Assembly: GCA_944389465.1 (NCBI GenBank)
Contig: CALXML010000004.1
Span: forward strand, 14,578 to 78,577
Length of the DNA stretch: 64,000 nt
Direction of reading: 5' to 3'
Origin: an uncultured Alphaproteobacteria bacterium
Lineage (GTDB): Bacteria > Pseudomonadota > Alphaproteobacteria > Rs-D84
Shown piece after piece: positions 3,864 through 7,489 of this stretch. The position numbers and the translations under genes are program-made. Below the pieces are notes generated by a model. That model was not told where the DNA came from, ran no database searches, and saw only the letters and a list, made by a program, of their open reading frames with translations. Numbering within the stretch: the stretch's first letter is position 1; each line of letters starts with the position of its first letter.

Positions 3864-6167
3864 ATGAAATGGACATATGATTGGTTAACAGATTATTTAA
3901 AAACAGATTTATCGGCCCAACAAATTGCCGATACTTTGACACGTACCGGCCTAGAGGTAGAAGATTTATCCGCCCCAATTGCACCAATTGCGGCAAAAAT
4001 CGTTGAATGCAGACCCATGGACGGCAGTGACCATTTGCATATTTTAATGGTTGATGATGGAACTGATACATTGCGTCAGGTTGTATGTGGTGCGCCAAAT
4101 GCACGCGTGGGATTAATATCTGCATTGGCATTGCCAAATTGCGTCATAGCAGGCCATGAAATCCATGCCGGCAAACTGCGCGGTGTGATGTCAAATGGTA
4201 TGATGTGCAGCGGCCGTGAATTGGGAATAAACGATGACCACAGTGGCATTATTGAATTGCCAGCGGATACAAAAATTGGCACGCCCGTATTAAAAACAGA
4301 AACAGTGTTTGATGCTGGAATTACACCAAATCGTCCTGATTATTTGGCGGTGCGTGGAATTGCGCGTGACCTGTCTGCATGTGGTGTGGGCCAATATATT
4401 GCGCCAACAGACGACGAATTAAAACCAGTAAAATCACAACGCAATGTAAATATTAAAACAGATAAATGCCCTGTGTATCAATTCTGTGAAATACATAATA
4501 TAACGGTTGCCCCCAGTGATAATACAATAAAATCACGTCTGGCGGCGATTGGTATTAATCCAAAAAACGCGCCGGTTGATGCAACTAATTATGTTTGCTA
4601 TGACATGGGACAACCAATGCATTGCTTTGACGCAGATGAAATTCATGGCGATATCACTGTACGTATGGCAACGCCAGATGAAAAGTTTACAGACTTGTTT
4701 GGTAATGAACATACGTTATGCGAATCAGATATGGTAATTGCCGATGATATGGGCGTATTGGCATTGGCTGGTGTTATTGGTGGTGCACGTGGTATGACAA
4801 CCGATAATACAAAAAATATTATTTTGGAAAGTGCATATTTTAATCCTGTATCTGTGCGTAAAACGTCCAAACGTTTGGGAATATCAACTGATTCATCATA
4901 CAGATATGAACGTGGTATTGACCCAACAATTACGGGCATTGCATTGGCACGCGCGGCACATATTATAATGAACGCGTGTGGCGGTGAAATAATTGGTACA
5001 GGTATCGGTGGCAAAATTCCAACAGAAAATCGCCACATAGAATACAAACCAGAATTATTCGCGCGTAAAACAGGCGTTGAAATGCCAACTGACAAACAAC
5101 GTGCGATATTAAAAAATCTGGGGTTTGACGTTGTGGAAAAATCAGGTACGTGGTTAATTACGCCACGTCCGGCCCGTGTGGATATTGAATTACCTGAAAA
5201 CATAGTATCAGAATTAATCCGTATTTATGGGTATGACAATATTATAAAAAATGCTGTGCACAGGGCATCTGATTCTGCACCACATCGTGATTATTATATT
5301 GAAACGAAACGTGAATTGGCGTCACGTGGTTTGAACGAGGCTAAATCTTTCGGCTTTGGTAATTCCAAGACTGAAAATTTATTGTCAGATAAACCAATTG
5401 TAAAAATAGCCAATCCAATTGTCGCAAATATGGATACCGCGCGTAATGGTCTGTTGGGCAATATGTTGAATATTGTTGCTGAAAATGAAAAACGTGGATA
5501 TCCAGATTTGTCTTTGTTTGAATTGGGCACTGTATTTGACGGTGACGCGTCAGGTGCACAACACACACAAATTTGCATTGTGCGCACGGGTGAAAACGCG
5601 CCACGTCATTGGACACGCCGTAATCGTAAATATGATATTTATGATGTCAAGGCAGACGTAATCGCATTATTACACGGACAAAAATTCACCATATCATCTG
5701 AAAATCCGCCACGTTGGGCACATCCATTCAGATATGGCGCGGTAATGCAGGGCAAACGCAAAATTGCTGAATTTGGTGAATTACATCCATCTGTGGCACG
5801 TGCATTAAAAATCAAGACAAATGTAAATATTGCGCTTGTGGATGATGTTGAAAATCTGCCGATGGGCCATAAAGTGCATGAACCAACCCTGTCAGAATTT
5901 CAACCAATAACACGTGATTTTGCGTTTATTGTGGACGGTGATATGCCGGCCGAAAAATTAACATCTGTGGCGCGTGCGACGGATTCACGTATATCGGATG
6001 TGATTGTGTTTGACGCGTTTGATATGTCAGATGGTAAAAAATCAATTGCTTTTACAATAACAATCATTCCGACAGAAAATATGACAGATACAGAATTACA
6101 AAAATTACAATCTGCTGTCATAGACAATGTTGAACGTAAATGCAATGCACAAATTCGTGATAAATAG
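3864..6167 (+). CDS. pheT: Phenylalanine-tRNA ligase beta subunit
   Basis: VCGAPN, GMMCS..ELG, TPNRPD, RYERG, RDFAF anticodon-binding domain. Confidence 0.97.
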   Translation: MKWTYDWLTDYLKTDLSAQQIADTLTRTGLEVEDLSAPIAPIAAKIVECRPMDGSDHLHILMVDDGTDTLRQVVCGAPNARVGLISALALPNCVIAGHEIHAGKLRGVMSNGMMCSGRELGINDDHSGIIELPADTKIGTPVLKTETVFDAGITPNRPDYLAVRGIARDLSACGVGQYIAPTDDELKPVKSQRNVNIKTDKCPVYQFCEIHNITVAPSDNTIKSRLAAIGINPKNAPVDATNYVCYDMGQPMHCFDADEIHGDITVRMATPDEKFTDLFGNEHTLCESDMVIADDMGVLALAGVIGGARGMTTDNTKNIILESAYFNPVSVRKTSKRLGISTDSSYRYERGIDPTITGIALARAAHIIMNACGGEIIGTGIGGKIPTENRHIEYKPELFARKTGVEMPTDKQRAILKNLGFDVVEKSGTWLITPRPARVDIELPENIVSELIRIYGYDNIIKNAVHRASDSAPHRDYYIETKRELASRGLNEAKSFGFGNSKTENLLSDKPIVKIANPIVANMDTARNGLLGNMLNIVAENEKRGYPDLSLFELGTVFDGDASGAQHTQICIVRTGENAPRHWTRRNRKYDIYDVKADVIALLHGQKFTISSENPPRWAHPFRYGAVMQGKRKIAEFGELHPSVARALKIKTNVNIALVDDVENLPMGHKVHEPTLSEFQPITRDFAFIVDGDMPAEKLTSVARATDSRISDVIVFDAFDMSDGKKSIAFTITIIPTENMTDTELQKLQSAVIDNVERKCNAQIRDK

Positions 6168-6193
6168 TATGTACAATCCCGCGTAAATATTAT

Positions 6194-6222
6194 TTGCGCG
6201 GGATTTAAAAAATTGGTATAAT
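6194..6222 (+). promoter_or_regulatory. Sigma70-type promoter for the pilin-like gene, overlapping the pheT terminator hairpin
   Basis: TTGCGC-17 bp-TATAAT with extended TG. Confidence 0.65.
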
Positions 6223-6247
6223 TATATCCATAATAAATGCCGAAAAT

Positions 6248-6343
6248 AAACCACCGTTTCTTATGGCGGTTTTTATTTTTGTAAAAATACCAGTTTTCTG
6301 CATTTTTTTGTTCCTTTTGCTTGCCGAAATTAAACGGTGGTTT
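6248..6343. other. Putative invertible DNA segment carrying the RBS and first codons of the pilin gene, in OFF orientation
   Basis: Perfect 12-bp inverted repeats AAACCACCGTTT (6248-6259) and AAACGGTGGTTT (6332-6343); inversion restores an in-frame ATG with an AAGGA RBS. Confidence 0.75.
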
Positions 6344-6686
6344 TCAAACAATAATTTTTGCCGTGTTAATAATTGCCGTATCCACGTCTGCGAACGCAGC
6401 ACCGGTAAACAGGGGCCTGTGCGATATGATTGCAAAATTTCAGGATGTGTTCAAATTACTGCGCACATTGGCGTTTGTTGGGGCGGGCTTTATATTGGCC
6501 AAATACGGTTGGGAAGCCATATCTTCTGGAAAATTGGCTGGTTCAGACAATGTTGTTGATGGATTAAAGAAAATCGGGTTACCAATGATTATTGGATTCG
6601 CATTACTGTTTTCAATCGGAATATTATTGAATTTCTTAAGTAACGGTGAAAATTTCGGATGTGAAAATTTAACAATCGGCTGGTAA
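6321..6686 (+). CDS. TrbC/VirB2-like pilin; its true 5' end is inverted
   Basis: Signal peptide ending ANA, two hydrophobic helices with a charged loop, flanking Cys pair; the current TTG start has no RBS; virD4 is in the same window. Confidence 0.6.
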   Translation: MPKLNGGFQTIIFAVLIIAVSTSANAAPVNRGLCDMIAKFQDVFKLLRTLAFVGAGFILAKYGWEAISSGKLAGSDNVVDGLKKIGLPMIIGFALLFSIGILLNFLSNGENFGCENLTIGW

Positions 6687-6700
6687 TAACGGGGGATGAT

Positions 6701-6784
6701 ATGAAATTTGAAACAAAGAAAAAGGCAGTTTTTATTATAATGGTAATCGCCGTTTTGATATGCGGTTATATGATTGCATTATAA
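6701..6784 (+). CDS. 27-aa single-TM microprotein
   Basis: GGGGGA RBS; MKFETKKKAVFIIMVIAVLICGYMIAL*; lies before the operon terminator. Confidence 0.6.
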   Translation: MKFETKKKAVFIIMVIAVLICGYMIAL

Positions 6785-6788
6785 TTAC

Positions 6789-6816
6789 AAAAAGGCCGGC
6801 ATTTACCGGCCTTTTT
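6789..6816. terminator. Bidirectional terminator (CCGGCATTT family)
   Basis: AAAAAGGCCGGC-ATTT-ACCGGCCTTTTT between convergent genes. Confidence 0.8.
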
Positions 6817-6826
6817 AATATATTTT

Positions 6827-7489
6827 TTATATAATTTTATCCGGTGCGGTGCACCATTTTGCCACCGGACATTCTGCACATTTTGGGCGTAATGCCCGAC
6901 AAATATAACGACCATGTAAAACCATTACATGATTTACAACAGGATGATATTTTTTTGGAACAATTTTTAATAATTGTTCTTCTACCTTTTCGGGGGTATT
7001 GGCATCCGCCCCAACCCAACCATAGCGATGTGCATTGCGGAAAACATGGGTATCCACCCCAATATTTGGTGCGCCCCATAAAACATTCATAATAACATTG
7101 GCTGTTTTTTGCCCAATTCCAGATAATTTCATTAATGCATCACGATTATGATATTTTGCCGGAAATTTATAATTATCATCCGCCCCACCCGCGTCATTCA
7201 TTAATTCAGCGGCCAGTCCCATAATACTTTTAGCCTTGTTATTAAAGAAAGACAAAACACAGATGTGTTTTTTTAAACCTTCTTCGCCCAGTGCCAACAT
7301 TTTTGCAGGTGATGGCGCAATGCGAAATAATGCGGGTGTAACCTCGTTTACTTTTTTATCAGTTGCCTGTGCGGATAAAATCACTGCAACTGCGAAAGTA
7401 AATTCATTTACTGAATACAATTCCGACCGTATATTCATATTTATAACGGTCGGAACGTTTTTAAAATAAATTTCTGGTGTTAACGCCAT
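6827..7489 (-). CDS. nth: Endonuclease III
   Basis: LSAQATD, HhH LSGIGQKTANV, VDTHVFR, C-x6-C-x2-C-x5-C. Confidence 0.95.
   Translation of the reverse strand: MALTPEIYFKNVPTVINMNIRSELYSVNEFTFAVAVILSAQATDKKVNEVTPALFRIAPSPAKMLALGEEGLKKHICVLSFFNNKAKSIMGLAAELMNDAGGADDNYKFPAKYHNRDALMKLSGIGQKTANVIMNVLWGAPNIGVDTHVFRNAHRYGWVGADANTPEKVEEQLLKIVPKKYHPVVNHVMVLHGRYICRALRPKCAECPVAKWCTAPDKII

Follow-up and report, generated by a model that had tools for sequence, protein, structure and literature searches.

The DNA studied here, called the window throughout, is a stretch of 64,000 nucleotides from an uncultured alphaproteobacterium of the lineage Rs-D84 (GenBank assembly GCA_944389465.1, contig CALXML010000004.1, positions 14,578 to 78,577 of the forward strand). 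The host, a gut bacterium, is probably Ca. Enterousia; its genome, G000, has 954 kb and the window lies on contig C4 of it; coordinates given without a contig are positions in the window. At 6194-6816 we find a short two-gene unit whose first gene codes for a small VirB2/TrbC-like membrane protein. Between the promoter-like region and the body of this gene lies a miniature segment bounded by inverted repeats. An earlier note, made from the sequence letters alone, had proposed that this segment is an invertible switch which holds the translation start of the gene backwards. We call the present state, with the leader backwards, OFF, and the state in which the leader is fused in frame with the gene body ON.

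The locus has the following features (SD, Shine-Dalgarno sequence; G017, a related genome):

6194..6234, + strand: promoter-like region outside the switch, putatively TTGCGC-N17-TGgTATAAT (6194-6222) or TTAAAA-18-CATAAT (6205-6234); TTGATA..TGGCATAAT at the corresponding position of the G017 ortholog
6238..6250, + strand: outer (promoter-side) 13-nt arm TGCCGAAAATAAA; the same arm (12-13/13) is found promoter-side in 16/17 cassettes of the genome
6248..6259, + strand: left inverted repeat AAACCACCGTTT, including the 6-nt asymmetric core CCACCG (6251-6256)
6253..6280, + strand: terminator-like hairpin and T-run, in the OFF orientation only; reverse complement of the last codons of the leader
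6250..6303, - strand: leader MQKTGIFTKIKTAIRNGG, ATG plus 17 codons, signal-peptide n-region, directed away from the gene body
6312..6316, - strand: SD AAGGA, 8 nt upstream of the leader ATG
6322..6334, + strand: inner 13-nt arm TGCCGAAATTAAA, 12/13 to the consensus; TTG (6321-6323) is the gene-caller start in the OFF state
6332..6343, + strand: right inverted repeat AAACGGTGGTTT with the core CGGTGG (6335-6340), 84 bp centre to centre from the left core
6336..6686, + strand: gene body GGFQTIIFAVLIIAVSTSANA-AP..., VirB2/TrbC-like small membrane protein, 116 codons and stop, no good start of its own
6701..6784, + strand: gene for the 27-aa membrane peptide MKFETKKKAVFIIMVIAVLICGYMIAL, SD of its own, next after the pilin-like gene on the same strand
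6789..6816, + strand: strong terminator-like hairpin, which closes the two-gene unit

Organization of the locus

The repeat listing of the window contains the two arms that the earlier note had described (6248-6259 and 6332-6343, 12 nt each, 100% complementary, spacer 72 nt). Left of both copies lies a 14-nt direct repeat (TGCCGAAAATAAAC at 6238-6251 and TGCCGAAATTAAAC at 6322-6335, 13/14 identical). The backwards leader could be confirmed as well, since the minus strand from 6303 to 6250 translates as listed and AAGGA stands at the proper distance. When 6260-6331 is inverted by a script, the leader fuses in frame with the gene body and an open reading frame of 132 aa results, starting at 6288. 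In the present orientation the reading frame behind the switch (6321-6686, 121 aa) starts at a TTG without any SD. The flipping element thus comprises the SD, the start codon and the N-terminal leader, and the promoter stays outside. The sequence TTGCGC-N17-TATAAT with a TG before the -10 box can be read there; the promoter scan skips it, as its first hexamer matches at only 3/6 positions, and lists the second, overlapping candidate instead.

The terminator scan independently called a hairpin at 6253-6270 followed by the tail TTTTATTTTT in the present orientation. The predicted fold of the OFF transcript has -13.3 kcal/mol, and after the flip the longest T-run is 3. The present orientation is therefore predicted to set a terminator behind the promoter, as the note had supposed. 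The Rfam scan of 6100-6900 gave nothing near the gathering score.

A 12-bp inverted repeat alone is not unusual. Perfect 12-bp inverted repeats with a spacer of 20-120 nt occur at 2 loci in the window against a mean of 1.34 pairs in Markov-1 resamples. The significance of the locus comes from its context, that is, the exact in-frame fusion, the 17 copies in the genome and the presence of both orientations in nature. The sole other short-range inverted repeat of at least 12 bp in the window is found at 62832-62915, where a T-run comes after a 17-bp perfect repeat (AGAGAACAGATAACAGA, 50 nt, complement); this may represent a terminator with a long hairpin or some other element.

Both orientations occur in natural sequences

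The flipped 132-aa reading frame is identical, residue for residue, to a protein in the database (P0072), which stems from a single contig of 4785 nt in an independent public Logan assembly. The TTG form of the window is present there too (P0068, 121 aa, MPKLNGG...), on 29 contigs against 1 for P0072. Both share one 90% cluster, along with start-site variants of 72-107 aa. As the 12-bp repeat is shorter than a 31-mer, we infer that a flipped path in the assembly needs real junction reads.

The flipped orientation is also found in relatives. The ortholog in G017 (73% protein identity) lies in a syntenic region with the order pheT, terminator, promoter, switch, body and convergent nth, and it is ON. 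Here arm, core and arm (TGCCGAATCTAAACCACCGTTTAGATTCGGTA) are followed by the SD and by the ATG of MQKSGIFGKIKTAITNGG, which is fused to the body, and the segment lies between the two copies of a perfect 22-bp inverted repeat, which are separated by 77 nt. In a related species one mature body exists in three forms, namely P0008 (called OFF, MPKKNGG...), P0010 (ON) and P0011 (ON with a different leader). The bodies of P0008 and P0010 are identical at 116/116 residues, and P0011 differs at 1 residue. The ON-state homologs P0010, P0011, P0027 and P0072 begin at the leader ATG and not at the TTG. Of the features that define an inverton, inverted repeats around the segment and both orientations with otherwise identical flanks (P0068/P0072; window/G017; P0008/P0010) are found.

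The search of metagenome contigs with P0072 retrieved one locus only, from another species, beside pheT and OFF. The protein search with residues 1-40 of P0072 for further ON-state proteins gave no candidate.

The cassette is repeated in the genome

The arm and the 12-mer recur across the genome. With an nhmmer model of the cassette we found 17 full-length copies on 8 contigs (E<=2e-10), plus weaker remnants. The earlier note had presented a lone switch; the locus is real, but it is one of 17 in this genome and belongs to a genus-wide family. The layout is the same in all 17, that is, promoter, outer arm, core, hairpin with T-run, backwards ATG, backwards SD, inner arm, core and gene. The segment between the cores measures 77-79 nt in 17/17 (78 at the window locus), and the core centres are 84 bp apart in 14/17 and 83-85 bp in the other 3; 84 bp corresponds to eight helical turns. 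Compared to TGCCGAAAATAAA, the outer arm matches at 12-13/13 positions in 16/17 loci and the inner arm at 9-12/13. The remaining two half-sites, at the leader end and in the gene body, are near chance level across the loci. The two cores are exact reverse complements in 13/17. For 17/17 loci the predicted OFF RNA shows a hairpin with a U-run behind it (first 62 nt, -7.3 to -17.3 kcal/mol), and the predicted ON RNA an arm stem-loop with a free SD and no U-run.

The leader peptide is kept across 13 cassettes although its codons vary; PILIGG, for example, is encoded with ATT CTT ATC and with ATA TTA ATC. This bears on a reading in which the present orientation is simply the working gene, starting at the TTG (6321) or at an ATG of the arm, with the hairpin as an attenuator or 5' untranslated region element and the backwards leader without meaning. 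MPKLNGGFQTIIFAVLIIAVSTSANA would be an acceptable signal peptide, many database entries start at MP[KN]xNGG, and OFF is the majority form in all 4 sequencing runs examined (see below). Against this reading stand the conservation of the leader peptide and the existence of ON-state proteins with the leader in assemblies. The TTG lacks an SD and is separated from the promoter by the terminator-like hairpin, and at other loci the arm has no start codon at all, as on contig C7, where the body is preceded by TCG. We therefore hold this reading to be highly improbable.

Two further observations concern the sites. At least three core classes with similar arms can be distinguished, CCACCG, CGTCCG and GGGACG/GGGACA (seen from the loci C9:9086 and C8:48197 of G000 and L053 and L072 of other genomes); these classes could correspond to different recombinase paralogs. 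At C1:32997-33130 of G000 (L029/L034) the same arms and cores surround a promoter-like sequence, TTGACA...CAAAAT, which faces away from a gene for a 292-aa protein of no known family. Judged from its layout, this looks like a classical promoter inverton on the same sites, in the OFF state.

Cassettes across the genus

The leader pattern was searched in further genomes of the genus. With at most 2 mismatches it occurs in 36/151 genus genomes, in 1/20 genomes of other genera of the family and in 1/29 of other families of the order (control 0). With at most 3 mismatches 70/121 genus genomes are hit against 4 hits of the reversed control, a count that includes false positives. Among these we rejected simple CCCAGAAATCTGGG hairpins as well as a conserved stretch, "MRKSGIFCCVAY...", that lacks an SD. 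A conserved stretch "MRKSGIFCCVAYVESESGVLPLNYAP" (L040, L045-L047, L054, L058, L069, L255, L257) resembles the start of the leader, has no SD or arms and recurs in many genomes, often at contig ends; with ARAGORN no transfer RNA was detected in L040.

From the other genomes 66 cassette loci were taken, with the best pattern match and not the state as the criterion. In a count by rule, these loci and those of G000 comprised 55 OFF, 8 ON, 5 "both" and 11 unclear (n=79). The hydropathy rule behind this count is noisy, as the arm itself encodes the hydrophobic LFSAF, and the 24/79 non-OFF calls were therefore curated by eye. After curation the loci of the other genomes are 8 ON, 56 OFF and 2 unclear (L096, L108), n=66. 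The ON loci (L003, L053, L072, L092, L110, L121, L235, L238) are spread over six genomes. L121 forms an ON/OFF pair with its paralog L116 within one genome, and in the single-contig genome G158 2 of 9 are ON. About one in eight ON in consensus assemblies is what would be given by mostly silent, independently switching genes, and finding 0/17 ON in G000 is compatible with this rate.

The repeats of other species are 19-22 bp long and 49-57 bp apart. Many cassette hits lie about 100-300 bases from contig ends (e.g. G115:C56:19, G123:C3:49, G126:C8:49, G042:C34:105, G132:C5:101). Short-read assemblies seem to be interrupted at such repeated or invertible sequences, and our cassette counts are therefore lower bounds.

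The same body is found with different leaders in different assemblies (P0010 versus P0011; P0096 versus the C7 locus of G000), which suggests that cassettes may be exchanged between loci. In some strains (P0002, P0007, P0009, P0022, P0029, P0096) the frame of an outer-arm ATG is open through the backwards cassette into the gene, and "proteins" of 145-271 aa with a spurious N-terminus are annotated. This frame is closed in the window (stop at 6282-6284) and at the C7 locus.

The switched genes

At 9/17 loci the cassette is followed by a body that lacks a start of its own and can be read without interruption over 116-340 codons in the frame of the leader; the junction leads straight into the hydrophobic core of a signal peptide. 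At 7/17 loci an SD-ATG and a signal peptide belong to the gene itself. These own-start cassettes are located in G000 at C3:24654-24770, C14:7977-8091, C9:9086-9193, C9:15937-16057, C1:118534, C8:16334 and C8:24649. In 2 of the 7 the leader ATG has been lost and a second hairpin (CCCAGATTTCTGGG) gained; cassettes without ATG can only act as invertible terminators. The own-start cassettes as a class look like pure invertible terminators that may derive from the start cassette. The locus at C9:19972 is odd and falls outside both classes.

Most of the switched bodies are cysteine-rich secreted proteins with a common C-terminal motif and no Pfam family. One switched gene (C9:34530-35549, L033) codes for a protein with CarboxypepD_reg-like domains (PF13715, E = 6e-26). 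Such domains are characteristic of outer-membrane proteins of Bacteroidota.

Among the switched genes, only that of the window is pilin-like. The earlier note had called its product a VirB2-like pilin. In support of this, TrbC (PF04956) is the only recurrent Pfam family, matched by 9/23 family members at E<=0.1 (best 3.7e-5), but the window protein itself scores 17.3 bits and stays below the gathering threshold of 27.9. The family profile found no relevant match among the PDB sequences, and tblastn of the pilin paralog against plasmids found none. The atlas neighbours, which are leads only, include TrbC, T4SS_pilin and CagC clusters at 0.87-0.90. The genome does encode a type IV secretion system; virB3 (33.3 bits versus 23.9) and virB4 (46.1 versus 21) are located some 15 kb upstream on the contig of the window and have no virB2 as a neighbour. 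A second, unswitched pilin paralog is present in the genome and is common to 23/24 sampled genus genomes. From these similarities "VirB2-like" appears reasonable as a working label, not as a statement of membership.

The peptide gene behind the pilin-like gene is conserved, with 27 aa in G017 and 29 aa in another related genome (G019), and it is absent behind the unswitched paralog (L002). It is probably under the same switch as the pilin-like gene.

Candidate recombinases

No recombinase is encoded in the window, and whole-genome scans with PF00589 and PF00239 match the contigs C1, C9, C6 and C3, not C4. As the candidates lie on other contigs only, the enzyme would have to act in trans, in line with the earlier note, which had also proposed to search the genome for orphan recombinases. 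Five recombinases are encoded outside the contig of the window: a XerD-like and a XerC-like protein, a phage-type integrase and two Mpi-family serine recombinases. The latter match NF009949 with 305.7 bits (cut-off 272) on C3 (L038) and with 256.2 bits on C6 (L037).

Mpi-family genes are found in 92/121 genus genomes, in 49/121 above the cut-off. All of the cassette-rich genomes (11/11) carry an Mpi-family copy of at least 300 bits; these genomes are kin and do not count as independent. Four genomes without Mpi gave five leader-like hits, none of which proved to be a cassette. The invertase is 81-89% identical to those of metagenome-assembled genomes of related gut Alphaproteobacteria (L127-L206). 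Its closest relatives outside the lineage, with 63-70% identity, come from Bacteroidales, Treponema, Lachnospiraceae and other gut bacteria, which suggests that the Mpi-family invertase may have spread horizontally among gut bacteria.

The Mpi-family serine invertase is our favoured candidate, and we give an even chance to the prediction that it flips the cassettes. The rival with the next claim, for the question of the enzyme only, is a XerC/XerD-like tyrosine recombinase or the phage-type integrase. The sites consist of two 13-bp inverted arms around a 6-bp asymmetric spacer. This is the classical design of tyrosine recombinase sites. Moreover, in G000 the XerC-like gene ends directly upstream of the switch at C9:35540, a distance of 1.5 kb separates the XerD-like gene from the promoter-type switch on C1, and the surface-gene inversions of mycoplasmas are driven by a Xer-like enzyme (PMC2268961). 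The adjacency of XerC is, however, not conserved, as a cassette lies within 1.5 kb of 0/5 XerC orthologs in other cassette-rich genomes. Further, at 4/17 loci the two cores differ in the first two bases but the central AC is kept. We infer that the 2-bp overlap of a serine recombinase would tolerate such mismatches better than the 6-bp overlap of a tyrosine recombinase. The Mpi family is also known to act on many dispersed sites (PMC4747536). Flipping by a Xer-like enzyme can thus be predicted only tentatively, and an enzyme of yet another kind is unlikely.

Proposed mechanism

We suggest that the switch operates as follows. Two recombination sites would lie in inverted orientation, each composed of the 6-bp asymmetric core (CCACCG / CGGTGG) and a 13-bp arm (TGCCGAAnnnAAA). 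On one strand the 78-bp segment between the cores would supply the SD, the ATG and the first 16 codons of the leader, with codons 17-18 (GG) in the core, and on the opposite strand a hairpin with a U-run. In the OFF state transcripts from the fixed upstream promoter would run into this terminator and the hairpin would end transcription; the unit of gene body and 27-aa peptide gene would lie behind it, the body having neither SD nor ATG. A site-specific recombinase acting in trans would then catalyse the flipping, which is supposed to be reversible and frequent. In the ON state the arms would form a 5' stem-loop without U-run, the SD would be exposed and the leader would be fused in frame to the body, so that a preprotein of 132 aa with a normal signal peptide is made. 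About 17 genes of the genome, mostly for cysteine-rich secreted proteins, would be controlled by the same cassette.

Several observations weigh against this proposal. Sequencing-run data were available as Logan contigs (20 holder runs from 8 studies), and contigs cannot reveal minority forms. At this contig level 4/4 runs examined (X1, X5, X9, X12; 4 studies, one possibly the source) bridge the locus by a long contig in the OFF state, with no strand-changing joint or flipped contig. Short high-depth pieces at 6269-6314 in the run contigs are other cassette copies. The ON form of the window locus rests on 1 contig against the 29 of the OFF-specific form, a second locus of the species (on C7) is found only as OFF type (7 distinct sequences, 18 contigs), and 17/17 cassettes of this genome are OFF. 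The inner arm contributes a start codon in frame, TTG in the window and ATG in many relatives; the resulting MPKLNGG... is also a plausible signal peptide, and the OFF state may thus be leaky. The sites themselves raise questions, too. Besides the 4/17 loci with cores unlike in the first two bases, the arms are asymmetric, so that after the flip the promoter-side site would have two good arms and the body-side site two poor ones (5 and 7/13). An easy return from ON to OFF is therefore not obvious at the window locus. G017 and G135 bear a third arm on the body side. With respect to the enzyme, in 5 other genomes no Mpi-family (0/8) or XerC (0/5) gene is next to a cassette, the 13-6-13 layout is typically used by tyrosine recombinases, and to our knowledge a loop of 84 bp is very short for an invertase.

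Some of these points could be explained if the inversions were real but rare and unprogrammed, arising by template switching or homologous recombination and fixed by lineage. The locus would then be a slow polymorphism and not a switch. The lack of a within-sample mixture in the run contigs, the uniform OFF state of this genome and the chance level of a 12-bp repeat agree with this. Yet arms of 13 nt, a core of 6 nt and a phasing of 84 bp have been retained in the 17 copies, and this suggests that selection maintains a site bound by a protein. Further, identical bodies differ only in orientation (P0068/P0072, P0008/P0010), the ON loci are scattered over 6 genomes and among the paralogs of one genome, and dedicated invertase-family genes are present. 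We consider a slow polymorphism very unlikely. With considerable confidence we regard 6251-6340 of the window as a miniature invertible DNA switch, an inverton.

For the wider system our confidence is smaller. We lean towards a genus-wide, portable, two-faced start cassette of 78 bp with sites phased by eight turns, placed before about 17-23 genes for surface or secreted proteins per genome of about 1 Mb (about 2% of the genes). It would be flipped in trans by Mpi-family invertases apparently acquired from Bacteroidales (63-70% identity), it would be exchangeable between loci, and some copies would have degenerated to pure invertible terminators.

Discussion

The host lineage is uncultured, with a genome below 1 Mb and neither tricarboxylic acid cycle nor respiration (PMC12306168). 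That so small a genome maintains some 17 switches for surface proteins and a type IV secretion pilin-like protein suggests that host immunity, phages or partner cells exert a strong pressure. The design is that of an inversion switch of less than 100 bp in which one strand provides the translation start and the opposite strand the terminator, a single module that can be placed before many genes. If true, it would be among the smallest natural invertons. It would also represent a class of switch that acts on transcription and translation initiation at once and that could give each cell a combinatorial surface coat.

There are practical consequences as well. Depending on orientation and choice of start, gene callers give the window gene at least 9 lengths (72 to 132 aa), and genes in the OFF state appear truncated or start-less. 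Inverton screens which require long repeats or internal promoters would miss this class of cassette. The 84-bp phasing offers a compact natural template for synthetic recombinase switches.

In the literature on inversion switches with start codon, SD and terminator we did not find this design described; journals and supplementary tables outside our search might hold cases. For Rs-D84 together with invertase no literature was found, and the accessible excerpts of the Enterousia literature contain no mention of inversion.

So-called partial intergenic or gene-altering invertons also have one repeat in an intergenic region and one within a coding sequence, yet the published descriptions of these classes mostly concern long exchanges of homologous gene parts of the shufflon type (PMC10028968, PMC9881135). 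One of these screens required repeats of at least 22 bp linked to pairs of coding sequences on opposite strands (PMC9881135), and for this reason the 12-bp/78-bp design would be missed by it.

The vpma/Xer1, vsp and vsa/HvsR systems of mycoplasmas resemble our case in that a family of surface-protein genes in a reduced genome has inversion sites near the 5' ends of the genes (PMC2268961). In these systems one promoter is moved among clustered genes, with one gene ON at a time and an adjacent tyrosine recombinase (PMC2268961). Here, in contrast, each gene has its own promoter and a private cassette, the loci are dispersed, and independent switching is possible.

In the gut bacterium Bacteroides fragilis surface molecules are controlled by short invertible regions; these are numerous and dispersed, and a single serine "master invertase", Mpi, flips them in trans (PMC4747536). 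The genome analysed here likewise carries an Mpi-family gene above the NCBIfam cut-off and 17 dispersed targets on 8 contigs with a common arm and core. Unlike the segments of the Mpi regulon, which carry promoters and measure about 170-230 bp, the present ones bear a terminator and the start of translation; they belong to an alphaproteobacterium with less than 1 Mb, and the role of Mpi is a prediction.

The cwpV switch of Clostridioides difficile, which depends on RecV, is a single locus of 195 bp whose segment contains no part of any reading frame (PMC2784873). As in our case, the promoter lies outside the segment, an intrinsic terminator in the leader transcript (predicted here) accounts for the OFF state, and the recombinase is encoded elsewhere (PMC2784873). 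A minority of cells is ON in cwpV, about 5% (PMC2784873); here 8/66 cassettes are ON in the assemblies of other genomes. Unlike cwpV, the segment has only 78 bp, holds SD, ATG and 18 leader codons and is present in 17 copies per genome.

In summary, the window locus is a real switch and part of a genus-wide system. The principle of DNA inversion is already known, and the combination of start and terminator is the new variation. Among the systems described in the sources accessible to us, cwpV is the nearest in mechanism and the Mpi regulon the nearest in organization.

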